Shown piece after piece: positions 16,902-37,525 of a stretch of DNA of 64,000 nucleotides. Within the stretch, counting starts at the first letter, position 1. Each line of letters starts with the position of its first letter. The translations under genes and the position numbers were made by a program. A model generated the notes under the pieces. The model was not told the origin of the DNA. It worked only from the letters and a program-made list of their open reading frames with translations, and did no database searches. The stretch is from Longimicrobiales bacterium (GTDB taxonomy: Bacteria > Gemmatimonadota > Gemmatimonadetes > Longimicrobiales > Gaopeijiaceae): the NCBI GenBank assembly GCA_965238005.1, contig OZ250165.1:1312001-1376000 (forward strand), given 5' to 3'.

Positions 16902-19900
16902 ATGAAGTTGAGGTTCGCCCAACTCGGAGCTACCGCGCTCATTCTTCTCCTGTCGTGCACGACGGGGGACTCGCCGTCTGGGTTCGAGGGAGCGGGCATT
17001 ACGCGGCTATCTCTGTCGGTAGCGTATCCCACCGAGGTCTCTCCTGCCTCCTCGGCCGACATCAGCCGGATCCGCGTGACGGTTCGACGTGCCTCAGACC
17101 GGACGGTCCTTGACGTGATCGTGACGGAGGTGGAGCCGACGGCGAGCGAGTGGACGCTCGACCTGGAGCTCACGGTTCTGGACGGGGACCCGACGGTGAT
17201 CCTTTTGATCGAGTTGATCTCGGTGGAGAACGGGGTGGAGACCGTCGAGTGGTCGGGCGAGACGGGGCCGATCGGGCTGGCGCCGGGGCAGACGAGCGTG
17301 ATCCAGAACGTGGAAGTCGTGCAGGGCCCGCCGGGGAACCTAGCGGTGACATCAGTGACGATCGGACACCCTGGGGCGCTGGTGGAGGGGATGACGGTCC
17401 AGCTTCAGGCGGCGGTCGAGACGGACCAGCCGGGAGCGCAGACGCGCCTTCTGTGGGAGAGTTCGGACGCGACGAGGGCACGGGTGAGCGCGGACGGGTT
17501 CCTGGAAACCCTCTTGCCGGGGACGGTCCAGATCCGAGCGATGGCAGGCGCCGTAGCGGACGAGATCGAGGTGACAATCGACGCGAGGCCGGTGGGCCTG
17601 CGGTTCGTGGTGGAGCCCACGGATGTAGAGGTGGGTCAGCCCTTCGATTTGGCACCGAGCGTGGAAGCCATCGACACACGTGGGGACCGCGTGACGAACT
17701 TCACTGGTCTGGTGAGCATCGAGCTTCTGGACGCGGCGGCAGCCGGAGGGGGCGCGAGCGTGGGATCGGGCCAAGAGGGAGCGCCCGGCCCCGGGGCGAC
17801 GACTCAGGCCGAGGGGTGTCCGGAGGCACGGCCATGGTTGAACGGCACGACGGAGACAAATGCCGTGAACGGGCTGGCGGAATTCCCAGATGTCACGGTC
17901 GACGCACAATGCGAGTTTCAGATGGTTGCCCGGTCGAGTGGGCTCACTCAGGCGGTCAGCCTCCCGATCACGGCCTCGCCTCAAGAATTCGATCTCTCGG
18001 TCGGCAAGACGGTCCAGAAGGTGTCCGCCGTTGGGGTTTTGAGCATCGATGAGGGTGGCCCCACGGTGACCGTCGATGAGGGTGACGTCGTGCAGTTCAC
18101 AGTCACCGTAACAGACGAGCGGCCCGGCATCATATCGACCTTAGGTGCAGAGATAGACCCCGAAGCTGTAACTGGTGCTACCGTCGTGGATTTCCTGCCA
18201 CCTGGGCTGGTTTACGGTGATCACGAAATTACTACCGGCTCCACAACGTCGTCTACAGCGCCTTTAGCGGGCGCCTATTCTCACTTCGGGGGTGAAGCTG
18301 ACCCCTCGTACAATCCGGAGACTGGAGAGTGGGACGTCGGGGAGTTGCGGGGAACCGTGAGTCTCATCATTTGGGCGACAGTGGGCCCCGGTACCCAGGG
18401 CCAGGTGTTGGTCAACGAGGCGAATTTGACCCGGCAGGGTGACACGAATCCGGACAACAACGCCAGCAGCGCCACGGTGACCGTCAGGGCGAAGATGGCG
18501 GATCTGGGGCTAGGCAAGAGCGTGAGCGAGACGAGCCCGCTGGAAGGCCAAGAAGTGGCCTACACGATCACGGTCACGAACGGCGGTCCGCACCAGGCCG
18601 ATGACATCGTCATCGAAGGGCTAGTGCCGGACGGTCTCTCGATCACGGGAGGAATCGACCTGAATGCCGTCGGACGATTCGACCCCGACACGCGCCTCTG
18701 GCGTATCCCGACGCTCGCCCCGGGCGCGACGACCAGACTCAACGTGGAGGCAACGCCGGGCATGGGGTCAGCGGGCCAGGTGCTGACGAACACGGTGCGG
18801 GTCGCCTCGGTCGGGACGACCGACCCGAATGCTAGTAATGACGAGGCGAGCATATCGATCGACGTCCAGCCGGCGCCGACCCTGCCACCCATAGGAGAAC
18901 CGCTTGGCCCGTCGTACACGACGGTAGGGAATACCGATCTGGTGGCGGGAAGCTTCAGTCTCCCCACGACGCCCCACGTCGCGGATCCGGACAACCTGTT
19001 GTTCAACACCACATTCACCATGGTCACGACAACCGGCACGTTGCCGACGGCCAACGGCGGGACCGTCACCATCGAGGCGGACGGGGACTTCAGGTTCATG
19101 CCGGCTCCCGGTGACATAGATCCGGACGAGTTCTCCTACATGGTGAACACGGGCCAGACCGTGACGACCACCATCGCAATGCAGGACATGGTCTGGTACG
19201 TCGACAACTCTGCGGCCTTCGGCGGCAGTGGAACCTCCGCTCTCCCCTTCACTCAGCTCTCCGAGGCAGAGGCGGCATCCGGGGTGGGCGACCACATCTT
19301 CGTATTCGAAGGGAACGGATTCACGACGGGGATGGGCGACGGGATCACTCTGAAAGACGACCAAAAGATTGTGGGCGAGGGGCAGGGCCTCACGATCGCC
19401 CCGTTCCCCGCCCTCGTACCGGTCGGCAATGACCCTCAGCTCAGCAACATCTCTGGACCTGGCATCACTCTGGCCGACAACAACCTGGTTAGAGGGTTGA
19501 CCTTGGTCGGATCCCAGGGGCCTGCGATCCTGGGCAGTGGGATCATCGGGGGAACGATCGACAATGTTCTCATCGACGCACCGAGCGGCCCTGGCATCCT
19601 TTCTAAGCTCCACCACGGGTTTCTTCACCATCAGCGGTGTGACCACGGACGATACCTCGGGTGCCGGTCTCGAGATCGCGTCCGGAAGCCCCAGTGCGAC
19701 CGTGTTTGGGCTTACGGTCAACAACTCCTTGGGAGAAGGCATATTGCTGAATTCTACCACCTCAACCACCATCATTTTCAATTCGGTGGACATCACGAAC
19801 GCGGGCGGAACAGGCATGTTGTTTGACGAGGTCGGTGGAACCGTGACGATAAACTCCACGTCGGTCAGCGGGAGCTTTTTCGACAACCTGCTTCAGGTGA

Positions 19901-20751
19901 CCACCACCACAACGCCGCCGGTGTTCCTCGACATCGCGGGCTCGTCCTTCGACGGGTCGACCACTGGGAATGGGCTCAACCTGGTGAATCTCGGGGGCGA
20001 CGTGACCCTGACGTTCGACGGGGGGAGCGTGTCCAGCAACAATGCGGCCGCCGGCATTTTCATCGATGCGACCGGGGGGACCACCGACGCGACGATCCTG
20101 AACGGAACCCAGTTTACGGGAGGGTTCACGGGCTTCCGCGCGCGTCACTTGGCAACCACTAGTAGCACCGTCGTCGCCGACATCGACGGCGCGACGTTCG
20201 ATTTCCAGAACGGCTCGGCGATCGAGTTCGAAGGGATATCAACTTCCCTCGACGCGCAGTTCTTTATAACGGTACGCAACACTACCATCAATGGCCCGAG
20301 CGACAATGGCATCAGCATGACACACCAAGAGGATGAGCGGATAAAAATGCTCGCCGCGAACAACGCGATAACCGGAGTGGGGCAGGTCGCAATCCAGTTG
20401 CTATGCGGCACGCAATCGGGGGACCAGCCCGGTTGCGACACGACACTCCTGAACAACACGATCATCGGATCCGCCTTTTTTCCAGGCATCCTGTTGGACA
20501 ACCAATTCGGCTCCACAGTGTGCTACGATATACGTTCGAACGTGGTCACCCCGACCCGCGGAATTGAACTGAATCAGTCCGGCACCGGATTGGTCCGTAT
20601 CGAGCGTCAGGACGGCGTTGTGGGTTCGGAAGGCACGGCGTCGGTCATCGAGGCGCTCATTAAAGGGGAAAACCCGTCGGCAGCGACCGTGACCGTGAAC
20701 AACAGTTCGTTCTTCCTCTGGGGGTCCCCCGGAGCCTGCCCGGAGCCGTAG
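16902..20751 (+). CDS. Large surface lipoprotein (Ig-like, DUF11 repeats, beta-helix), split by a frameshift near 19598
   Basis: LLLSC lipobox; DLSVGK/DLGLGK...YTITVTNGGP...DPNASND; WYVDNS; removing one C from GGCATCCTTTCTA joins 16902..19826 and 19537..20751. Confidence 0.72.
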
Positions 20752-23641: not shown

Positions 23642-24991
23642 ATGTCACACCCCCGGACCAGCATCCTAGGCGCTGTTGCCGTCGTGGTTGCTCTAGCCAC
23701 CCTCGCCCCAAGGCCTTCCGAGGCTCAGTGGACCCCCATGAAGCGGGGGAGCGACAACATCGAAGTGCTGGGACACCTGCCCTTGGGCCCCGCCCTCAAC
23801 GTCGCGGACATGGACGTGGAGCAGGAGCTCTCCCGGCCCTATGCGTACGTGGGCCGTATGGTCTATGGGGGCGTGGGCGAGAAGGGCATGGACGTCATCA
23901 GCATCGAGGACCCGGGGCATCCTGAGCTCCTCTACGAGTGGCGCATCGACGAGCCGGATCTGCACCTCGGCCGGGGCGGGATGGACGTCAAGCACTTCAA
24001 GGTGAACGGCCGCTACTACGTGATCCAGTCGGTCCAGTTCGGCCAGGGTGGTCCGGATTCGGACATGGGCGGCGTCGTCCTCGACGTCACCGGCCTGCCC
24101 GACGTGTCCACGGTTCGCGAGGTCGCCAGGATCCGAGAGCCTCTCATGCCGGGTGGCTTCCACAACATCTTCGTCTACAAGCACTCCGACGGCCGCGTGC
24201 TGCTGTTCGCCACCGTGTCAGGCCCCTTTGCCCAAGTGTACGACCTCGGCAAGGTCGTTCAGGGCGCTTCCGCCGAGGAGGCCCTTGCCGGCCGTGTGCC
24301 CAATCCCAGCGCTGGTGAGGGCCGGGGCAACCGGGGCTACCACGACTTCTACGTGGGCTACCATCCCGACACTGACCAGGATCGCTTCTATGGTGGCGGC
24401 GGTGGCGGCTACTACATCTACAACGTCACCGACCTCGAGGAGCCTGAGCTACTGATCACCCTCACGGGCGTCAGTGGGGTTCGGGGCGGGCACACGTTCA
24501 CGCCGGGACCCAATGGCAGGTACGTGGTGGCCGAGACGGAGTACCAGTTCGCACCGCTCCGGATCTTCGACCTGCAGCCCGCCCTGGATGGGGAGACCAC
24601 CAACCTCCGCCGACCCATCTCGGGCTGGACGGCCGACTACAGGAACCTGACCCACAACCACGAGATTCGGTGGCCGCTGGTGTTCGTGTCCGGTTACCTG
24701 GACGGACTGCAGATCTTCAGCCTACAGGATCCCCACAATCCGGTGACCGTGGGCTACTACGACACGTACATCGGCCCTCGCGCGACCGAGACCAACCCCG
24801 TGTTCAACGGTGCGTTCGGAGTCGATGTCCGGAACGCCGACGGCCTGATCATGATCAGCGACATGAGCACCGGGTTCTGGACGTTCCGCATGGACGGCTT
24901 CCAGGGCTGGAACGGGAAGCAGTGGGGTGTGCCCGATATCTCCAGCGCCCAGAAGTGGGACGAGCCCGTACGGCGCCCCATCAGCGAGTAG
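23642..24991 (+). CDS. Secreted LVIVD-like beta-propeller protein, copy 1
   Basis: Signal peptide ending SEA-Q; repeated LDVTG/YNVTD/LQIFSLQDP blades; FHN, YHD, GHT, HNHE. Confidence 0.8.
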   Translation: MSHPRTSILGAVAVVVALATLAPRPSEAQWTPMKRGSDNIEVLGHLPLGPALNVADMDVEQELSRPYAYVGRMVYGGVGEKGMDVISIEDPGHPELLYEWRIDEPDLHLGRGGMDVKHFKVNGRYYVIQSVQFGQGGPDSDMGGVVLDVTGLPDVSTVREVARIREPLMPGGFHNIFVYKHSDGRVLLFATVSGPFAQVYDLGKVVQGASAEEALAGRVPNPSAGEGRGNRGYHDFYVGYHPDTDQDRFYGGGGGGYYIYNVTDLEEPELLITLTGVSGVRGGHTFTPGPNGRYVVAETEYQFAPLRIFDLQPALDGETTNLRRPISGWTADYRNLTHNHEIRWPLVFVSGYLDGLQIFSLQDPHNPVTVGYYDTYIGPRATETNPVFNGAFGVDVRNADGLIMISDMSTGFWTFRMDGFQGWNGKQWGVPDISSAQKWDEPVRRPISE

Positions 24992-25365
24992 AGCGAGTCG
25001 ACGGACTTTTCAGCGTAAGGACTTTTCGGGCCGAGCGCGGTGGCCGCGTTGCTATTCCTCGTCGTCGCGCCTGACCCACGCCTAACGGCGCGGGTACCTT
25101 GGATCCGGCGCCTCGGCACTCTCGGTGGCTCGCGAACTCCTGAGACACCACACCAGTAGCGGGAGGGGAGGAGTGCCCCGTAGCTTGTCGGGCACTTCGA
25201 CCGACGCGTGCCGGCCCGAACGGCGCTTCATCTACACTGAGAGAGTTCTCCATGTCACGTCCACAGACCAGCATCTCGGGGGGGAGCGCGGCCCTAGGTT
25301 GTCTCGTCCGTTTTATCTTTGTTGCGCCCCCGCCAGGCACGTCATCTCCATCGGGAGGACCGCTC

Positions 25366-26712
25366 ATGTGGTACCGTCCTTCAACCCTCGTCGGCGCGGC
25401 CTCGACCGTCTTCGCTCTGCTCGTCTTTTCCGGGGCTCCGGCGTCCGCGCAGTGGACGGCCCTGAACCGGGGCAGCGACAACGTCGAGGTACTGGGGCAT
25501 CTTCCTCTGGGTCCGCACCTCAACGTCTCGGACATGGACGTGGAGCAGGAGCTCTCCCGACCCTACGCCTATGTTTCCCGCATGGTTTGGGGAGACGGCG
25601 GCGAAAAGGGCATGGACATCGTCAGCATCGAGGACCCTGAGCATCCTGAGCTCATCTATGAGTGGCGCATCGAGGAGCAGGACCTGCACGTAGGGACCGG
25701 TGGGATGGACGTGAAGCACTTCAAGGTGAACGGCCGCTATTACGTGGTGCAGTCCGTGCAATTCGGGCAGGGCGGCCCCGATTCGGACATGGGCGCGGTC
25801 GTGCTGGACGTGACGGGCCTTCCCGATCCCTCGACGGTGCGGGAGGTGGCGAGGATCCGGGAGCCACTCCTTCCTGGTGGGTTCCACAACATCTTCGTCT
25901 ACAAACACTCCGACGGTAGGGTCTTGCTGTTCACCACGGTTTCGGGACCCTACTCCCACGTGTACGACCTCGGTCTAGTGGTGGAGGGCGAGAGCGCCGA
26001 GAACGCCCTAGTGGGCCGCGTGCCCGGTCCCGAGCGCCAAGGCGGCGGGTCGGCCTATCACGACATCTACGTGGGCTACCATCCCGACACCGACCAGGAC
26101 CGTTTCTACGGGGGTGGAACGGGCGGCTACTACATCTACGACGTCACGGACATCGAGAACCCAAAATTGGAGATCACCTTGACGGGGATCCGAGGGGTAG
26201 GCCGCGGGCATACGTTCACGCCGAGTCCCGACGGGCGCTACGTCGTGGCCGAGGTCGAGTACCAGTTCGCGCCGCTCAGGATCTTCGACTTGCAGCCGGC
26301 CCTGGACGGCAGGGTGACGAATATCAACCAGCCCATCGCGGGCTGGACGGCCGACTACGAGAACCTGGTGCACAATCACGAAGTCCGCTGGCCCTTCGTC
26401 TTCGCAGCGTCCTACCTGGACGGGCTCTCGATCTTCAACCTGCAGGATCCGTCGAATCCGGTGACCGTGGGTTACTACGACACCTACATCGGTCCCCGGG
26501 GGACCAGGAGCGCCATCGTCGGAGGTGCTTTCGGGGTGGACATCCGCAACGCCGACGGCCTGATCGTCGTGAGCGACATGAGCACCGGCCTCTGGACCTT
26601 CCGCATGGATGGCTTCCAGGGGTGGAACGGGGAGCAGTGGGGCATGCCCGACATCTCCAGCGCCCAGAAGTGGGACGAGCCGCGGCGGAGGCCTATCAGC
26701 GAGCAGCACTAG
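25366..26712 (+). CDS. Secreted LVIVD-like beta-propeller protein, copy 2
   Basis: Close paralog of copy 1; GGGAGG RBS. Confidence 0.8.
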   Translation: MWYRPSTLVGAASTVFALLVFSGAPASAQWTALNRGSDNVEVLGHLPLGPHLNVSDMDVEQELSRPYAYVSRMVWGDGGEKGMDIVSIEDPEHPELIYEWRIEEQDLHVGTGGMDVKHFKVNGRYYVVQSVQFGQGGPDSDMGAVVLDVTGLPDPSTVREVARIREPLLPGGFHNIFVYKHSDGRVLLFTTVSGPYSHVYDLGLVVEGESAENALVGRVPGPERQGGGSAYHDIYVGYHPDTDQDRFYGGGTGGYYIYDVTDIENPKLEITLTGIRGVGRGHTFTPSPDGRYVVAEVEYQFAPLRIFDLQPALDGRVTNINQPIAGWTADYENLVHNHEVRWPFVFAASYLDGLSIFNLQDPSNPVTVGYYDTYIGPRGTRSAIVGGAFGVDIRNADGLIVVSDMSTGLWTFRMDGFQGWNGEQWGMPDISSAQKWDEPRRRPISEQH

Positions 26713-26746
26713 ACCATCACATCATCTTCAGCGGGAGGGACCGCTC

Positions 26747-28093
26747 ATGTCGCACACTCGGCCAACCCTCATCTCCGTGGCGTTCGTGATCGCGGTAATG
26801 ATCGCCCTGGTCGTGGCACCCGTTTCGGCACAGTGGACTCCCATGAAGCGGGGCAGCGACAACATCGAGGTCGTGGGCCACCTGCCGCTGGGGCCGCCCT
26901 TGAGCGTCTCGGACATGGACGTGGAGCAGGAGCTGTCCCGTCCGTACGCCTACGTGTCACGGATGCGCTACGGCGTCGCCGGCCCCAAGGGCATGGACAT
27001 CATCAGCATCGAGGACCCGGCCAACCCCCAGATCATCTACGAGTGGCGGATCGAAGAGCAGGATCTGCACCTCGGGACGGGCGGGATGGACGCCAAGCAC
27101 TTCAAGCTGGGCGATCGCTACTACGTGGTGCAGTCGACCCAGTTCGGCCAGGGTGGACCCAACTCCGACATGGGCGCCGTGGTGCTCGACGTCACAGGAC
27201 TACCCGATCCGTCGACGGTTCGGGAGGTGGCGCGGATCCGGGAGCCGCTCCGCCCCGGCGGCTTCCACAACATCTTCATCTACAAGCACTCCGATGGCCG
27301 TGTGCTTCTGTTCGCCACCGTTTCCGGGCCTGTCGCCAACATCTATGACCTCGCGCTCGTGGTGGATGGTGCGGACGCCGAGACCGCGCTCGTGGGGGAG
27401 GTCCCCGTGCCAGAGCAGCCCGAGGGCAGCTTCACGATGGGCTATCACGACTTCTACGTCGCATACCACCCCGACACCGACCAGGACCGCTTCTACGGGG
27501 GTGGTGGGGGCGGCTACTACATCTACGACGTGAGCGACCCGGCGAATCCCGAGCTTGCCATCTCCCTGACTGGAATCCGCGGCGTGTCCTGGGGACACAC
27601 CTTCACCCCGAGCCCTGACGGGCGCTACGTCGTCGCCGAGGCCGAGTACCGCTTCGCCCCGCTGCGGATCTTCGACCTGCAGCCAGCCCTGGATGGCCGG
27701 GTGAGCAACATCAACCGGCCCATCTCGGGTTGGACGGCGGACTACGACAACCTGGTCCACAACCACGAGGTCCGCTGGCCATGGCTGTTCGTGACGGGCT
27801 ACCTGGACGGGCTCCAGGTGGTGAACCTGCAGGATCCGTCGAACCCCGTGACGGTGGGGTACTATGACACCTACCTGGGCGTCCGGGACCCGGCCCGGTG
27901 CCAGGAGTGCAACGGCTCCTTCGGAATCGACGTCCGGAACGCCGACGGCCTCATCGTAATGAGCGACATGAGCACCGGCTTCTGGACCTTCCGGATGGAC
28001 GGCTTCCAGGGCTGGAACGGCGAGCAGTGGATGCCCGATATCTCGAGCGCCCAGAAGTGGGACGAGCCGGTGCGGAGGCCCATCAGCCAGTAG
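26747..28093 (+). CDS. Secreted LVIVD-like beta-propeller protein, copy 3 (CQEC loop)
   Basis: Close paralog of copy 1; GGGAGG RBS. Confidence 0.8.
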   Translation: MSHTRPTLISVAFVIAVMIALVVAPVSAQWTPMKRGSDNIEVVGHLPLGPPLSVSDMDVEQELSRPYAYVSRMRYGVAGPKGMDIISIEDPANPQIIYEWRIEEQDLHLGTGGMDAKHFKLGDRYYVVQSTQFGQGGPNSDMGAVVLDVTGLPDPSTVREVARIREPLRPGGFHNIFIYKHSDGRVLLFATVSGPVANIYDLALVVDGADAETALVGEVPVPEQPEGSFTMGYHDFYVAYHPDTDQDRFYGGGGGGYYIYDVSDPANPELAISLTGIRGVSWGHTFTPSPDGRYVVAEAEYRFAPLRIFDLQPALDGRVSNINRPISGWTADYDNLVHNHEVRWPWLFVTGYLDGLQVVNLQDPSNPVTVGYYDTYLGVRDPARCQECNGSFGIDVRNADGLIVMSDMSTGFWTFRMDGFQGWNGEQWMPDISSAQKWDEPVRRPISQ

Positions 28094-28266
28094 CTCTCCC
28101 TACCTCGGTGAGCAGGTCCCCGGGGGTCCATCGGCGTCAACAAACAGCACGCGCGAGCCGTCTACATATGCTTACTGGCGACGTTCACCGCGCCTTGTAC
28201 ATTATGGTGCACGTCAGTGACAGCACTCACTGAAGGCAGCGCTTCACTCAAGTGGGAGAATGACCC

Positions 28267-29616
28267 ATGCAGCGCCCTCGGACTAGCAGTCTCGTTACGG
28301 TTGCTATCCTCACGACTCTCGCGATCACCCTGCCCGCCCAGGCGTCGGCGCAGTCGACCCCCCTGAAGCGGGGTAGTGACAATATTCATGTGCTGGGGCA
28401 TCTCCCCCTGGGGCCCGCCCTGAACGTGTCGGACATGGACGTGGAGCAGGAGCTGTCCCGTCCGTACGCGTACGTCGGCCGGATGCGGTACGGTGATGCC
28501 GGTCCGCGAGGGCTCGACATCATCAGCATCGAGGACCCCTCGCACCCGGAGATCCTCTACGAGTGGCGTATCGAGGACCAGGAGCTCCACTTGGGCACGG
28601 GTGCCATGGACGTGAAGCACTTCAAGGTCGACGGACGCTACTACGTGGTGCAGTCGCTACAATTCGGCCAGGGTGGCCCGGACTCGGATCTGGGAGCGGT
28701 CGTCCTGGACGTCAACGGACTACCCGACCCGTCCACGGTTCGTGAGGTCGCGCGGATCCGGGAGCCCCTGCTTCCCGGCGGCTTCCACAACATATTCATC
28801 TACAAGCACTCCGACGGCAGGGTGCTACTCTTCGCCACCGTCAGCGGGCCGTATGCAAACGTGTACGACCTGGGCAAGGTCGTTCGGGGAGCCTCGGCCG
28901 AGGAGGCCCTGGCCGGTCGGGTGCCCAACCCGCAGTCGGCCGAGACAGGCGGCAACCGGGGGTACCACGATTTCTACGTCGGCTACCATCCCGACACCGA
29001 TGAGGACCGCTTCTACGGTGGCGGCGGAGGCGGCTACTACATCCTCGACATCACGGATCTGTCGGATCCGCAGGTGCGCATCACGCTCACGGGCGTCAGC
29101 GGTGTGCGCGGTGGCCATACCTTCACTCCGAGCCCCGACGGCCGGTACGTGGTCGCGGAGACCGAATACGAATTCGCCCCCCTCAGATTCTTCGACCTGA
29201 AGCCGGCGCTGGACGGCGAAACGACCAACATCAGGCGGCCCATCTCCGGATGGACATCCAACTACAAGAACCTGGTCCACAACCACGAGGTCCGGTGGCC
29301 CTGGCTGTTCGTGTCCGGATATCTGGACGGCCTTCAGGTCGTGAACCTGCAGGATCCGACGAATCCCGTTTCAGTGGGGTACTACGACACCTATATCGGG
29401 CCGCGCAGCACCACCCGCACGCCCGTGTTCAACGGCGCCTTCGGTATAGACGTCAGAAACGCGGACGGGCTAATTTTGATCAGCGATATGAGCACGGGGT
29501 TCTGGACCTTCCGGATGGATGGGTTCCAGGGCTGGAACGGTGAGCAGTGGGGGATGCCCGACATCTCCAGTGCTCAGAAGTGGGATGCGCCCGTGCGTCG
29601 TCCTATCAGCGAGTAG
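28267..29616 (+). CDS. Secreted LVIVD-like beta-propeller protein, copy 4
   Basis: Close paralog of copy 1; GGAG RBS. Confidence 0.8.
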   Translation: MQRPRTSSLVTVAILTTLAITLPAQASAQSTPLKRGSDNIHVLGHLPLGPALNVSDMDVEQELSRPYAYVGRMRYGDAGPRGLDIISIEDPSHPEILYEWRIEDQELHLGTGAMDVKHFKVDGRYYVVQSLQFGQGGPDSDLGAVVLDVNGLPDPSTVREVARIREPLLPGGFHNIFIYKHSDGRVLLFATVSGPYANVYDLGKVVRGASAEEALAGRVPNPQSAETGGNRGYHDFYVGYHPDTDEDRFYGGGGGGYYILDITDLSDPQVRITLTGVSGVRGGHTFTPSPDGRYVVAETEYEFAPLRFFDLKPALDGETTNIRRPISGWTSNYKNLVHNHEVRWPWLFVSGYLDGLQVVNLQDPTNPVSVGYYDTYIGPRSTTRTPVFNGAFGIDVRNADGLILISDMSTGFWTFRMDGFQGWNGEQWGMPDISSAQKWDAPVRRPISE

Positions 29617-29619
29617 ATC

Positions 29620-30156
29620 ATGACCGTCTTTATTCCTCTCGCGGTGGCCATACTGGAGGCTGTCGGTCCGGTGACGCCCGGCATGTGTGTCGCCACCTTC
29701 AGCGATTCTCCGGTGTTCTACCAGGTGGAGCTGGTGACCACCAAGCGGGTCGCCGGCTCGGGGATGGCCACGGGCGTGGGCGAAGTCACGTTCACTCCTT
29801 CGCCCTTTGGCGTGAACCTGACCCAGAACGGTGACTACGTCCGCGATGTCGCGATCAGCGTAACCGCTTTGAAGGCACCATCCAAGGGCTCGTACGTGGC
29901 CTGGGTGACGACTCCCTCGTTGGACCGGACGAAGCGGCTCGGCGTCCTGGGTGCCGACGGTAGGGTCCACGGTCAGGTCGAGTACAACAAGTTCCTCCTG
30001 GTCATCTCTCTGGAAGACGACGACGGCTCGTCCTCCGAGCGCTGGAAGGGTCCGATCGTGCTCCGAGGCATGTCCAGGAGTGGGGCGATGCACACCTCCG
30101 CCGGGCATGGTCCCTTCGTGCAGGAGAATTGCATCGGGTACGGCTTCAACGGGTAG
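29620..30156 (+). CDS. Small, probably exported hypothetical protein (weak RskA C-terminal-like pattern)
   Basis: Starts 3 bp after copy 4; YVAW...FLLVISLE...GPIVLRG; MHTSAGH. Confidence 0.65.
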   Translation: MTVFIPLAVAILEAVGPVTPGMCVATFSDSPVFYQVELVTTKRVAGSGMATGVGEVTFTPSPFGVNLTQNGDYVRDVAISVTALKAPSKGSYVAWVTTPSLDRTKRLGVLGADGRVHGQVEYNKFLLVISLEDDDGSSSERWKGPIVLRGMSRSGAMHTSAGHGPFVQENCIGYGFNG

Positions 30157-30237
30157 GCAGACGACTCGTTCACACCGGTCATCCCCGTCGGTCTCGGTCA
30201 TCCGTGGGCCGACGGGGATGTTTCGCTTTCAACTGAA

Positions 30238-32004
30238 GTGATGCGCATGCGCAAGACGGACAGCCGGCGGTCCACCGGATGGGGGAGAGCATATCGGATT
30301 TCGGGGGCACTGGTCCTCGGCCTCGCTCTCCTCGCAGGTCAGGTGCGGGGCCAGGAGATGGACCACGCCGCCCACGCCATGGATATGGGCGACAGCCTGG
30401 TGTGGACGATGCCGCCGCACCCCGCGTGGATGAATCCAGCCATGATGGCCCCGTTCATGGGGATCCTACCGAACGTCTCGCCGTTTCTGCCAGGTCCGGA
30501 CTTGGACATCGGCGTACTGCCGATGGCCCGTGCTCCCGAGGTGGTACAACTGGTCGACGGGGATACGCTGCGGCTCGACGCCGGGGTGCTGCATGGGATG
30601 ATCGGCAGCCGGATGGTCAAGGTGTACGGTTTCAACGGCCAGTTCCCGGGCCCGACGCTCAGAGTGCCCCAGGACGCGACCATCGTGGTGGAGTTCACGA
30701 ACAACATCGATTTCGCGACCACCCTGCGCTGGCATGGGGTGCGGGTCGAGAACCGATACGACGGGGTTCCGGGCCTGACCCAGAGGCCCGTCCGGGTGGG
30801 GAGCACCTACACCGCGCAGGTCCGTTTCCCGGATGCTGGAGTGTTCTGGTATCACCCGCATCAGCGTGGGCACATCGCGCAGGATCTGGGACTGTACGGC
30901 AGCATCATCGTCGACTCGCCGGATCCCGACTACTACGGCTCCGCCAACTCCGAGGAGTCGCTGATCATCGATGACGCCCTCATGACGGAGACGGGCTGGA
31001 CACCCTTCGGACTCGAGGCGCCGACTAACGCACTCATGGGGCGGTTCGGCAACGTCATTCTGGTCAACGGGCGACCCGGATTCCGGAAGACCGTCAAGAA
31101 AGGCGACGTCGTGCGGCTCTTCCTGACCAACGCGTCGAATACGAGGAACTACAACCTCAGGATCGAGGGCGGGGTCCCGATGAAGCTCTTGGCTGGGGGG
31201 CTCAGTCGGTTCGAACGCGAAGAGATGACGCCCACCGTGATAATCGCTCCCGGCCAGCGCTACGTCGTCGCCGCCAAGTTCGACGAGCCGGGCGAGTACG
31301 CGCTCACCAACCGGATCACCGCCGTCGATCACTGGATGGGAGAGTACTTCTACCAGGTCGATACGCTGGGTGTGTTCGTGGTGTCCGATGAAAGCACCGA
31401 TCAGGACTTCAGCGCGGCGTTCGAGACCCTGCGGTCCAACGACGAGGTAATCGCCGAGTTCGAGGCCGTGCGCGCCGAGGCGAACCGGCAAGTGGACGAG
31501 GAGCTCGTCCTGTCCCTCAACATCGGCGAGCTTCCCATCCCGGTCATCCTGATGATGGAGATAGACACGCTCTTTTACCCGCCGGTGGAGTTCAACGACG
31601 CCATGCCGATGATGAACTGGCTTTCCACCGGCATCAACTTGACGTGGCTCATGCACGAGCCCGACCCCGACGCGTCACGCCGCGACCTCGGGCCGGCGTT
31701 CGGGTGGCGGTTCAAGGAAGGGGACATCGTCAAGATCCGCATCTACAACACACACGAGTCCTGGCATCCCATGAGCCATCCGCTGCACCTCCACGGTCAA
31801 CGGTTCGCGGTGATCGAGCAGGACGGAGTGCAGACAACGAATCTCGTGTGGAGGGACACCGTCCTGATCCCGGTCGGCACCACCATGGATCTTCTGGTGG
31901 AGATGTCGAACCCCGGGACCTGGATGTTCAATTGCCAGATCCCGGAGCACGTGGGGTCCGGCATGTCCATGAACTTCACCGTGGAGCCGGCCCCCCCAGG
32001 ATAG
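30238..32004 (+). CDS. Multicopper oxidase family protein with degenerate trinuclear site
   Basis: FNGQFPGPTL, RWHG, WYHPH, HPLHLHG, NCQIPEHVGSGM; Met/His-rich N-terminus. Confidence 0.9.
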   Translation: MMRMRKTDSRRSTGWGRAYRISGALVLGLALLAGQVRGQEMDHAAHAMDMGDSLVWTMPPHPAWMNPAMMAPFMGILPNVSPFLPGPDLDIGVLPMARAPEVVQLVDGDTLRLDAGVLHGMIGSRMVKVYGFNGQFPGPTLRVPQDATIVVEFTNNIDFATTLRWHGVRVENRYDGVPGLTQRPVRVGSTYTAQVRFPDAGVFWYHPHQRGHIAQDLGLYGSIIVDSPDPDYYGSANSEESLIIDDALMTETGWTPFGLEAPTNALMGRFGNVILVNGRPGFRKTVKKGDVVRLFLTNASNTRNYNLRIEGGVPMKLLAGGLSRFEREEMTPTVIIAPGQRYVVAAKFDEPGEYALTNRITAVDHWMGEYFYQVDTLGVFVVSDESTDQDFSAAFETLRSNDEVIAEFEAVRAEANRQVDEELVLSLNIGELPIPVILMMEIDTLFYPPVEFNDAMPMMNWLSTGINLTWLMHEPDPDASRRDLGPAFGWRFKEGDIVKIRIYNTHESWHPMSHPLHLHGQRFAVIEQDGVQTTNLVWRDTVLIPVGTTMDLLVEMSNPGTWMFNCQIPEHVGSGMSMNFTVEPAPPG

Positions 32005-32080
32005 CCCTGTTCGGGCACTCCGCAGCGAGAGGGGGCGAGCCCACCTGACCCACCCCCTCCAATTCGGCTGCGGACAGCCG

Positions 32081-34510
32081 CTAGAACACCGGCTGCCTCC
32101 GCTTCCGCACCACGAAGAGCCCTTCACGCATGCTGGTGAAGACGATCACTCCGCTCTCGAAGAACGGGTAGTTGCTCCAGGAGCCCGCGAACCCGGGAGA
32201 GTTCTCGCCCACCGGAACACTGTCGAAGAATCCTACTTCCTTCGGGTTGGCGGGATCGGAGATGTCCAGGATTCGGAGACCGCTCACGTAGTTGGACTGA
32301 TACATGAACTGGCCCTGGATGTAGAGGTTGTGGTCGGATGACGACGTCTCGCCCATGTGCTCCTTGACCAGAACGGGGTCATCCAGGTCCTCGATGTCCC
32401 ACACCAGCGTCCGAGTCCGCTCCACTCCGGAGAGCTCGTCCAGCTCGTCGTTGACGTAGAAGTAGCGGTGGTCGTCCGAGATCCAGCCCTGGTGGACGTA
32501 GCCTGGGTTGGGGTAGGTCGCCGTGGCGATCGGAACGGGGTTCGATTTGTCCGAGACGTCGGAGATGCTGATCGCCGTCTCGTTGGCACCGAAGCACACT
32601 TCCTTCCCCTGATGCTGCGTGTCTGGACCCTTGTACACGATGCACTGGGCGTCGTGGCTGTATCCGGTTCCGGTATTCCCCGTGGCCGGGTCCGAAAAGC
32701 ACCCGGCGAAGGTGGGGTTGGTGGGATCGCGGACGTCGATCATGTGGAGACCGCCACCGCACGTCTCGCCACCCATGCTCGCGCCGACGACATAAGCGAA
32801 GCCCGAGCCCTCGTTCATCACGATGTTGTGGGCACTGAAGATACCGTCGTAGTGGGCCGTCTCTCCGAACGTCACGGGCGGATTCTCCACGTCGCGGAGC
32901 TGACGGAGATCGAAGATCTGGACTCCGTGCGGCCCGGCGCCGTCTGCTACGATAAAGGCATGGTCGGCGTACACCTTCACGTCGCGCCACATGTTCGCCG
33001 TGGCACCTTCGGTAAGGGGAAGCTCGCCCAGGTAGAGTGGGTTGGCCGGATCCTGGAGGCTGACGAAGGTCATGGCGTCCATGCGCCCCACCAGGGCGTA
33101 CTCGATTCCAGTGTCGGGATCGGTCCAACCCCAGATGTCGTTCACCATGATTCCCCGGGCTCCGCCCAGGTCCTTTACCGGCAGGAAAGAGACCAGGTCG
33201 ACCTCGGAACAGTCGAAGCCACCGACGGTCCCGACGTCACTGCAGTCCTCGGGTGACCCGAGGATCCCCTCCATGCCACCGCCCTCGTCGATGAGCGATT
33301 CGATCACCCCCCACTCCCCGACGGCGCTCTCGCGTCCATACAGGTTGCCCACTCCCTCGAAGAAGTCGGCTCCCGGGGCTCCCACGACGGCGAGGTCCTC
33401 GCCGCCGGCGATGGCCATTCCCATGAAGGACCTCGGAGACGTCATAGTCAGTGTCTGCAGCTCCTGCCAATCACCCCCACTGGAAGCCCGGAAGACAAAG
33501 GCCATTCCGGCAAGGGGTGCACCCACGAAGAGATCCTCGCCGGCCCTGGCCACGGCCATGCCGAACCCGGACTGGCGAACGGCCGTCGAGGCCGTGATGC
33601 GCCCGGCCTCCGACCACTCCCCCGCGGCGCTCGGAGCGAAGCGGTGCACCACCCCGTTGATCTCGTTCCCTAGGGGCGCCCCGATGAGCGCCTCGTCACC
33701 GTCGAGAACGACCGAATGGCCGAACAGGCCGGGCCCCTCTCTACCGGACGTGACCCGGGCGACTTCCACGAAGTCGCCAGCCTCGAGCTCGAAGATGTAG
33801 GCGGATCCGGCCGCCGGCGGTGGGCCTCCGGGAAGCATGCCGGGGAAAGGTCCCGGTGCCCCGACGAGGAGCCGCTCCCCGTCGAAGGCCAGGGCGGCGC
33901 CGAACCTCTCACCCGCCCGGACGTCCGAGCCTCCGATCGTGGCGATCTCGGTCCAGGCTCCGCCGAGCATCCGGAAGACGACGACCGCGCCGCCTTGCTC
34001 CGCATGACCCGGCGCCCCCACCAGCGCGAAATCGCCGCTCAGCACTACGGAGCCCCCGAGCTCGTCTCCAGCCGTCCGCGTCGCCGTCCGCAATACGGCA
34101 GTCTGCTGCCACTGTGCCTCCGGCTCGGAACGCCGGAACATGTAGGCTGCGCCCCGCCCTTCCTGCGTCTTGGGGGCCCCCACGAGCATGGTGTTGCCGT
34201 CCACGGCCAGCGCCTGTCCGAAGCCGTCACCCACCTCGACGGAGTCCGAGGTCACCACGGCCTTCTCCTCCCACCTGTTGTCGGTGTTCCCGAAGACGTG
34301 GACGCTGCCCGTATGGTTCGGGGGGATGGGGAAGAAGGAGATTTCCCCCGGACGACCAACGAATACCTCACCGCCCTGGACGACGACGGCCGCTCCGAAG
34401 CCTGCGGAGCCCATGGAGCGTCCGCCGGTCACGGAGGTCTGTGCCGCAACCGGCGTGCTCGAAAGGAAAAGGCCGAAGCCTAGAGCGATCAAACGAAAGG
34501 TGCTCTGCAT
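32081..34510 (-). CDS. Choice-of-anchor B family protein (FG-GAP repeats plus LVIVD-type propeller)
   Basis: FG...VGAP repeats; NDIWGWTD, WRDVKVY, AHNI, YSHDAQC, HQGW, HNLY, GSWSNYPFFESG. Confidence 0.88.
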   Translation of the reverse strand: MQSTFRLIALGFGLFLSSTPVAAQTSVTGGRSMGSAGFGAAVVVQGGEVFVGRPGEISFFPIPPNHTGSVHVFGNTDNRWEEKAVVTSDSVEVGDGFGQALAVDGNTMLVGAPKTQEGRGAAYMFRRSEPEAQWQQTAVLRTATRTAGDELGGSVVLSGDFALVGAPGHAEQGGAVVVFRMLGGAWTEIATIGGSDVRAGERFGAALAFDGERLLVGAPGPFPGMLPGGPPPAAGSAYIFELEAGDFVEVARVTSGREGPGLFGHSVVLDGDEALIGAPLGNEINGVVHRFAPSAAGEWSEAGRITASTAVRQSGFGMAVARAGEDLFVGAPLAGMAFVFRASSGGDWQELQTLTMTSPRSFMGMAIAGGEDLAVVGAPGADFFEGVGNLYGRESAVGEWGVIESLIDEGGGMEGILGSPEDCSDVGTVGGFDCSEVDLVSFLPVKDLGGARGIMVNDIWGWTDPDTGIEYALVGRMDAMTFVSLQDPANPLYLGELPLTEGATANMWRDVKVYADHAFIVADGAGPHGVQIFDLRQLRDVENPPVTFGETAHYDGIFSAHNIVMNEGSGFAYVVGASMGGETCGGGLHMIDVRDPTNPTFAGCFSDPATGNTGTGYSHDAQCIVYKGPDTQHQGKEVCFGANETAISISDVSDKSNPVPIATATYPNPGYVHQGWISDDHRYFYVNDELDELSGVERTRTLVWDIEDLDDPVLVKEHMGETSSSDHNLYIQGQFMYQSNYVSGLRILDISDPANPKEVGFFDSVPVGENSPGFAGSWSNYPFFESGVIVFTSMREGLFVVRKRRQPVF

Positions 34511-36671: not shown

Positions 36672-36865
36672 CGCGGTGGGCTCCTCCGGAGCTGGGGGAG
36701 TCCAAGTCCTCGATGAAGTCCGTCGCCTCTTCGGCGCTCGGGCGGATGACGGAGAGGACGCCCAAGGTGGCCAGGATGAGAGCGAGAATAATGCGCGTCA
36801 TGCTGTGTGTGCGTATACTAAAGTCTCACGTAGGTTCCTGGCACCGACGAGAAGGAGGGCTCCCC

Positions 36866-37525
36866 ATGCGACTACGCTGTACTGCGTTCATCTTCATCAT
36901 TTCCTTGGGACTCGCTTTCGCCCAACCCGCGGCCGCGCAGGACGAAGGATCCACCCTCATCGCCGTGGGTGAGATGGCGCCGGACTTCTCCCTGCCCGGT
37001 GCAACCCGGTACGGAATCCTACAGGATCCGGTCCGCTTGTCGGATTTGAGGGGAGAGGCGGTGGTACTGGCGTTCTTCTTCAGAGCGCGAACGCGTGGCT
37101 GAACGATCCAAATGGAAGCGTACCGTGATCAGTACGCAAGCGTATTCCGGGGCGGCCGAGGAGTAACGGTCATCGGCATCAGCGACGACTCGCCCGAAGA
37201 GCTGGCCTCTTGGGCTGCCGACGCCGACTTTCCCGTCCTGTTCGCCCACGACAAGGGTCACGCAGTGGCCCAGGCCTATGGTCTCGGGCTCCGCTCCAGC
37301 GGGAACATCGCGTCCCGGTCGGTGATCGTGGTCGGTCCGGATGGCAGGGTCGCGTGGACCGCCCTCCAGTTCCGGGGGATCGACCCCTCGGCCTACGAGG
37401 AGCTCGGAGCCGAAGTCGCCCGTGTGGCGCCGGCACTGGACGAAGGCATGGAGGATCTCCCGCAGGCCATGGACGACGGGTTCGATGGAGAGCGGCTCGA
37501 GGGAATCGGACTCCCCGACTGCTAG
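36866..37525 (+). CDS. Exported AhpC/TSA (BCP-like) peroxiredoxin, predicted selenoprotein (UGA 37100-37102)
   Basis: Signal peptide, VGEMAPDFSL, AFFFRARTRG-TGA-TIQMEAYRD, VIGISDD; both track ORFs are in the same frame. Confidence 0.8.
37118..37137 (+). promoter_or_regulatory. Candidate bacterial SECIS hairpin
   Basis: GCGTAC-CGTGATCA-GTACGC; loop begins 21 nt after the UGA, with G as second loop base. Confidence 0.6.

Follow-up and report, generated by a model that had tools for sequence, protein, structure and literature searches.

The closest solved relative of the propeller proteins described here is the phosphotriesterase of Sphingobium sp. TCM1 (Sb-PTE, a haloalkylphosphorus hydrolase; PDB 5HRM and 5IOJ), a binuclear hydrolase built as a seven-bladed propeller. 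NosZ, also a seven-bladed propeller, draws seven His ligands from its blades and has a cupredoxin-type CuA centre. We analysed a 64,000-nucleotide stretch of DNA (the window; G000:C1:1312001-1376000, contig OZ250165.1 of assembly GCA_965238005.1) from a Longimicrobiales bacterium, in which four paralogous secreted propellers are encoded upstream of a small 178-aa protein and a multicopper oxidase (MCO) homolog. Coordinates are positions within the window; genome-wide ones carry the prefix G000:C1. Like Sb-PTE, the window propellers have seven blades, His residues where successive inner strands begin and, in blade 5, a Glu that follows the second strand. They differ from it in their low identity (16%), in having mostly Met at the E201 position, an extra invariant H108 and a Trp-rich C-terminal extension, and in being encoded with a small protein and an MCO. 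An earlier note on this DNA had taken NosZ as the model, but the window propellers have no CuA domain, four ring His plus a Glu, and linked genes that are not nos. Searched at E<=0.01 against NCBIfam and Pfam, the propeller family matched no models other than TIGR04312 and LVIVD, and NosZ is not among the listed Foldseek or VIA-align matches for the propeller (the top 50 in VIA-align). Sb-PTE, the nearest solved relative, takes its place as the model.

The other parts of the locus also have described counterparts. The small protein may resemble CCS and Cu,Zn superoxide dismutase (SOD) in its barrel and in a flexible, putatively metal-binding tail; the CCS tail carries Cys-x-Cys, whereas that of the small protein uses Met and His. 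In the choice-of-anchor B (TIGR04312)/LVIVD repeat (PF08309) group, a convergent gene at the end of the locus is a full member, and the four paralogs are homologous but fall below the cut-off. With CueO and Thermus-type MCOs the window MCO shares three cupredoxin domains, a complete type-1 site and a Met-rich segment; it differs in belonging to a type in which Arg, Asn and Gln are fixed and which is always paired or fused with the putatively SOD-fold protein, and it scores 131 bits against the CueO model (cut-off 525). It is like SufI/FtsP (67 bits, cut-off 581) in being an MCO fold that has lost cluster ligands. However, SufI is reported to bind no copper and to retain 2 of 12 ligands (PMC2661564), whereas the window MCO keeps 9 of 12, including all those of type 1.

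The conserved unit is a propeller, the 178-aa protein and the MCO. We tentatively favour, at somewhat short of even chances, an explanation in which the small protein and the MCO form a copper/redox service unit for His-rich two-metal enzymes, one that would carry, oxidise or scavenge copper or reset the redox state of the partner's centre, and the propellers are metallohydrolases with different substrates. We lean this way because two unrelated His-rich two-metal folds share the accessory unit, and because that unit remains linked and selected after its O2 site has changed.

Conservation of the unit and its switch of partner

An open reading frame (ORF) check confirmed the seven ORFs of the locus, and with them the layout described in the earlier note. 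Propeller 1 (23642..24991, 449 aa, secreted), paralog 2 (25366..26712, 448 aa from an ATG with a ribosome-binding site), paralog 3 (26747..28093, 448 aa) and paralog 4 (28267..29616, 449 aa) lie co-directionally on the + strand; 3 bp after the fourth stop comes the gene for the small protein (29620..30156, +, 178 aa, secreted) and then that for the MCO homolog (30238..32004, +, 588 aa), with a fifth propeller gene converging on them (32081..34510, -, 809 aa). The N-termini of the four propellers are signal-peptide-like, as judged by eye. Pfam gave one sub-threshold LVIVD match on the four propellers, zero matches on the small protein, three Cu-oxidase domains on the MCO, and FG-GAP plus LVIVD on the convergent gene. 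The whole genome contains 11 propellers of the window family, 8 choice-of-anchor B genes and 3 units of small protein plus MCO.

Linkage was surveyed in 41 related genomes, which as kin are not independent and several of which are fragmented assemblies. Among them 21 have the propeller, 28 a full-length MCO and 27 the small domain. Every one of the 21 propeller genomes has a full-length MCO, and none of the 13 genomes lacking the MCO has a propeller. A propeller lies at most 4.5 kb from a small gene in 18 of the 21. In a separate set of 28 loci whose MCO has the rebuilt trinuclear site described below, a propeller lies within about 9 kb at 21. The association with the MCO elsewhere, for which the earlier note had proposed a neighbourhood survey, holds in these genomes and loci. 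Its inclusion of choice-of-anchor B as a member of the system was not borne out: such a gene is present at 6/28 rebuilt-MCO loci and at 0/16 wide intact-MCO loci, and it was ruled out as a core gene. The fifth propeller, an FG-GAP plus choice-of-anchor B (TIGR04312) protein, is thus a loosely linked neighbour. Its ortholog in a close relative is split into separate ORFs (L021:6494-7987, genome G001).

The partner of the unit changes with the form of the small protein. Where the small gene is free, a propeller lies within 4.5 kb in 19 of 24 cases and an amidohydrolase in none. Of 18 small genes that are joined with the MCO in one reading frame, 16 have on the same strand an amidohydrolase, always from a single secreted family, and one has a propeller, in a back-to-back module; one duplicate small-gene fragment was excluded from these counts, and genome G038 was taken as free. 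The partner amidohydrolases carry a His-x-His/Lys/His/His/Asp set, which we take to be the usual amidohydrolase ligand motif, and they are related to binuclear peptidases and amide hydrolases.

Several individual loci can be added to these counts. Amidohydrolases 46-58% identical to the seed stand just downstream of fused small-MCO genes at L030, L031, L032, L034, L036, L037, L038, L043 and L044, and at the last two a propeller, a fused rebuilt MCO and an amidohydrolase follow one another. DUF5916-type outer-membrane proteins are encoded near four rebuilt-MCO loci (L043, L044, L045 and L051). The other two small-plus-MCO units of the window's own genome (G000:C1:3189152-3191332 and 3060080-3062762) also have Arg/Asn/Gln and have no adjacent partner; since their counterparts in relatives (L043/L044 and L024) do have partners, local deletions are suggested. 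In Rhodocaloribacter litoris an intact MCO (QXD13952.1) and a propeller (QXD13954.1) are two accessions apart, so that the module, judged from the accessions, probably reaches Rhodothermota.

A putative two-metal site in the propellers

The propeller model (AlphaFold, 106-sequence alignment, pLDDT 94.4) has seven blades and consists of one propeller plus a tail. Its top Foldseek match is Sb-PTE (5HRM; E 5.8e-12, TM 0.62, at the 16% identity given above), a profile of the family finds Sb-PTE as the sole PDB sequence with E<0.1 (E 1.8e-4), and the fifth propeller matches it as well (E 1e-3). In the printed alignment fragments, Sb-PTE E201, H258, H389 and E407 stand at blade-start or second-strand positions. 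Taking H317 and H475 as further ligands, and assuming the ligand roles of all six, blade counting from the two end matches places the Sb-PTE ligand positions at M114, H174, H234, H284, E300 and H338. The putative binuclear site of propeller 1 is accordingly H174, H234, H284, E300 and H338, with E300 at the place of the bridging Glu and M114 or H108 near the sixth position, and paralogs 2, 3 and 4 have the same ligand set. By the secondary structure of the model, the ring His lie at or just before the inner strands of blades 3-6, all on the same face.

Conservation was assessed in 66 distinct propellers from the own genome and the fetched loci (49-100% identity). All 66 keep H108, H174, H181, H234, H284, E298, H338 and E341, while E300 is kept in 62 and H340 in 63; among close homologs H174, H234, H284, E300 and H338 are each present in 74 of 74. 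The five His motifs that the earlier note called invariant do occur in all four paralogs, and the four ring His are invariant in the larger set as well, but the His of its KHF motif (H118) is present in only 34/66 and was ruled out as a ring ligand. Propellers 2-4 are 74-80% identical to the first, so invariance among the four paralogs alone says little. From these residue patterns the propellers are probably metal-binding, with a two-metal active site.

The four paralogs are distinct types. They group with their counterparts from other genomes and not with their window neighbours (FastTree support 0.99-1.0), and dN/dS in four ortholog pairs is 0.10-0.12. Differences among the four occupy 50/109 positions in top-face loops against 27/89 in bottom loops, a variability that would fit different substrates for the paralogs. 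The earlier note had proposed metal-dependent propeller enzymes: probable metal binding and the retention of distinct types agree with this, while for the redox chemistry it had in mind the nearest evidence leans instead to hydrolysis.

Against TIGR04312 the fifth propeller scores 439 bits and the four paralogs 37.5-42.5 bits (cut-off 100), so that the latter form a separate unnamed family, with at least 2628 clusters among 8000 scored. The similar His pattern noticed in the fifth propeller was recovered: its His/Glu ring (H561, H619, H673, E689 and H727) shares columns with the ring of the four paralogs (HHalign 97.9%). In a subclade of propellers (G000:C1:1160184, 3036468, 3150458 and 3151909; L043 and L044) a Lys occupies the position of the sixth Sb-PTE ligand, and it is conceivable that it acts as a carbamylated ligand, as in amidohydrolases. 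The distant relatives P0143, P0147, P0149 (a Rhodothermia record), P0166, P0169, P0174, P0177 and P0196 keep the scaffold and vary the His positions, and are probably a metal-free subfamily as far as their sequences tell.

The rebuilt multicopper oxidase and the small protein

The MCO has three domains and a Met-rich N-terminus. Its type-1 ligands (H514, C566, H571 and M576) are intact, as they are in 48/48 members of the rebuilt clade, and three of its eight trinuclear His are swapped: R164 (30727..30729, +) stands in place of the first type-2 copper His, and N565-C566-Q567 (31930..31938, +) in place of the His-Cys-His link from the type-1 to the type-3 coppers. The earlier note was right that the type-1 site is intact and the O2-site ligands broken. 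Its description of the protein as T1-only has not been established, given that 47-48 of 48 rebuilt MCOs also conserve the other five cluster His (as a background, 164 of 525 columns are equally conserved).

These changes define a clade. Among the best 120 MCO homolog clusters 47 have Asn-Cys-Gln, 46 of those also the Arg, and 73 have all ligands. The rebuilt MCOs form a single branch (7 of 32 tree rows, support 100/100); across 48 of them, with a median pairwise identity of 57%, R164 is found in 47 and N565 and Q567 in all 48. Their dN/dS is 0.11-0.23 (seven pairs), compared with 0.15-0.19 for three intact pairs. Fixation, the single clade and low dN/dS rule out a pseudogene or a sequencing error, and by the same signs the altered MCO is to be read as rebuilt and maintained by selection rather than decaying and, most relatives being intact, as a lineage-specific version. 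The rebuilt clade is rare: searched with one exact pattern, it is found in 28 stretches of a species-genome collection, all from Gemmatimonadota, and in 4/401 sampled Gemmatimonadota genomes, from three families. A Tat-type two-domain multicopper oxidase is encoded elsewhere in the genome (G000:C1:4609457-4610545).

Under the CueO ligand map as we assume it, one of the two His of the type-2 copper is gone, and at each type-3 copper an amide takes the place of one His; R164 is presumably equivalent to Fet3p H81. A His-to-Gln change at Fet3p H81 is reported to lead to loss of the type-2 copper (2.7 vs 3.8 Cu; PMC5796215), and enzymes depleted of type-2 copper are reported to stall (PMC10107611). 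Because this single swap removes the type-2 copper and enzymes depleted of it stall, we strongly infer by analogy that O2 reduction has been lost in the rebuilt MCO.

Such a loss would bear on the possibility of a sequential pathway, in which the propeller or amidohydrolase would cleave an ester or amide and a laccase-like MCO would oxidise the freed phenol, amine or thiol. Such a pathway would suit two unrelated hydrolase-type partners, the bacterial laccases that are the closest solved MCOs, and the 73/120 homolog clusters with all copper ligands. We find it improbable, since the rebuilt clade should not reduce O2 and yet its linkage (21/28) and purifying selection persist, since no intact three-domain MCO was found in the own genome, and since a His/Met tail that occurs only in the free small protein is left unexplained.

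The type-1 site, conserved in 48/48 of the rebuilt clade, would favour another alternative, an electron chain. In this alternative, the one closest to the earlier note, the propellers would be Cu- or Fe-dependent oxidases or dehydrogenases whose electrons pass by way of the small protein to the type-1 copper of the MCO; from there an intact MCO would hand them to O2, and a rebuilt one to a cytochrome or cupredoxin. In 45/66 propellers a Met stands near the ring where a carboxylate would be, the extra His H108 is in 66/66, a co-directional cupredoxin-like gene follows the MCO at L048, a convergent cupredoxin-domain gene is present at L064 and a cytochrome c nearby at L041, and the genome encodes a haem-copper oxidase, all of which would favour it. 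We nevertheless consider it rather unlikely: the small-plus-MCO unit pairs with amidohydrolases too, which are not redox enzymes, the sole solved relative of the propellers is a hydrolase, and a co-directional blue-copper acceptor was found at only 1 of 28 loci in a scan of 54 + 5 chosen neighbours by motif pattern and by eye, which could miss others. That count does not support the idea that the rebuilt MCO generally has a blue-copper partner of its own.

In the model of the small protein a beta-barrel is followed by a tail of low confidence. Structural comparison of the small protein by VIA-align puts Cu,Zn-SOD or CCS chains in each of the first 12 places, at modest Z (best Z 9.2, rmsd 3.2, 105 aligned), and Foldseek gave no match at E<=0.001. 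The whole protein has only three His, two of them in the tail, and so no SOD active site. A weak likeness to the RskA C-terminal domain (PF10099) is also present: the small protein scores 13.6 bits against a gathering cut-off of 29.4, and among 110 members 22 reach E<=0.1, the best of them 0.001. In the tail (30088..30132, +), M157, H158, H163 and C171 are found in every one of 110 aligned free-standing forms, namely the window protein together with 109 out of 120 matches. Exactly two Cys are present in 106/110 homologs, and C171 may pair with C23. On these conserved residues the tail is probably a copper site, and the tail is absent from the MCO-fused form. The earlier note had suggested a shared cupredoxin carrier or copper chaperone; linkage to the small protein and the MCO is conserved, and a copper-carrier role for the small protein is plausible. 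A second tail Met (residue 160, 30097-30099) occurs at 11/11 tailed intact-MCO loci and at only 1/16 rebuilt-MCO loci, a pattern that may reflect one shared event.

A tail of this kind, together with the Met-rich N-terminus of the MCO, might serve copper resistance or storage, with the MCO as a CueO-like Cu(I) oxidase, the small protein as a copper shuttle, the propellers as non-catalytic copper sinks and the rebuilt MCO as a scaffold that is becoming SufI-like. Pointing in that direction are copper-chaperone neighbours of the DUF411 and PpoB2 kinds (one locus each) and the precedent of SufI as a non-catalytic MCO (PMC2661564). We give this alternative little weight. SufI keeps 2/12 ligands (PMC2661564), whereas the rebuilt clade keeps 9/12 and has the other three fixed; that different species retain the same distinct orthologous types of propeller paralog is better matched by substrate specialisation than by storage; and neither a copper exporter nor a copper regulator recurs among the clustered or scanned neighbours.

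A possible service role and its meaning

In the favoured explanation, of a copper/redox service unit working for two-metal hydrolases, the propellers would be two-metal enzymes of the Sb-PTE type, with the four His at the inner-strand starts of blades 3-6 and the blade-5 Glu holding metals at the top of the channel, and with variable top-face loops giving each paralog its own substrate; hydrolysis would be their most likely chemistry. The small protein would be a CCS-like copper carrier or adaptor, combining a SOD-type barrel with a flexible His/Met/Cys tail. The MCO would be an accessory to the partner enzyme and not mainly a substrate oxidase, and by binding or oxidising copper, or some other metal, it would load the His-rich metal centre of that partner, protect it or reset it. 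In its rebuilt form O2 reduction would be gone, with the type-1 copper and a pair of sites of two His plus an amide retained, so that it might hold or relay copper or electrons without O2.

Several observations weigh against this explanation. Two VIA-align lists for the propeller are led by WD40 proteins (Z ~31), with Sb-PTE not among the top 50, and the middle HMMER matches to Sb-PTE are weak and out of blade register. The case for convergence of the His is made from where they lie on the blades of a model, and the position of the sixth Sb-PTE ligand (the Glu201 equivalent) varies, being Met in 45, Lys in 7, Leu in 8 and other residues in 6 of the 66 propellers. Further out, among 21 representatives of >=380 aa, some of which look frameshifted, the ring His survive in only 24-38%, so that the site is gone from part of the wider propeller family. 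The excess of variability in top-face over bottom loops is modest (entropy 1.0 vs 0.76). In the own genome 7/11 propellers lie more than 13 kb from any MCO gene, and the amidohydrolase family also occurs in 6/13 genomes without the MCO. Finally, Sb-PTE and amidohydrolases use Mn/Zn-type metals, and the need for copper is therefore not obvious.

A bolder form of the idea, which we regard as speculative and unlikely, is that the Arg/Asn/Gln clade has turned its O2 cluster into a new symmetrical two-metal site, with two His and an amide for each metal and the Arg in the type-2 hole, wired to the blue copper. Together with the SOD-fold carrier it would be a general maturase or reactivase in the periplasm that loads, or resets the redox state of, binuclear enzymes rich in His, whether their fold is a propeller or the unrelated one of the amidohydrolases.

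Some further features of the window lie outside these subjects. A promoter and terminator scan gave 0 promoter-like and 3 terminator-like sites, not above shuffled sequences. In metatranscriptomes (three runs from two studies) only 6-8% of words were present, and short scattered contigs from relatives covered the propeller, small, MCO and fifth-propeller genes, matches that inform on neither expression level nor co-transcription. At 36713-37525 (+) two in-frame AhpC/TSA ORFs are separated by one TGA (37100-37102), by appearance a selenocysteine peroxiredoxin-like gene. A DUF11/Ig-domain protein (16902-20751, +) runs on in an overlapping ORF of another frame (19537-20751), a possible frameshift.

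Every part of the module has a known fold, and the module itself is uncharacterised. Literature searches, which covered few subscription papers and in which the LVIVD papers were judged by title or opening of the abstract, found no paper on the propeller family, the module or the function of LVIVD/choice-of-anchor B proteins, and none joining LVIVD with multicopper oxidase; the single paper on LVIVD, propeller and metal was unrelated, as were those found on MCO and pseudoenzymes. This analysis adds the switch of partner, the test for selection on the MCO, and the SOD/CCS-like fold and the tail of the small protein. The native chemistry of the propellers would annotate a large unnamed family, present in 11 copies in this genome; its one solved relative is distant and has a site that hydrolyses organophosphate triesters. 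A natural MCO in which purifying selection maintains three fixed ligand replacements would reveal what use the scaffold has once oxygen is out of play, and offers a ready means of probing the trinuclear cluster. Since the partner, propeller or amidohydrolase, changes with the form of the small protein, the accessory role can be tested directly, and a named Rhodothermota species apparently has the module in intact form. If the favoured explanation is true, the unit points to a hitherto uncharacterised way of servicing metal enzymes.

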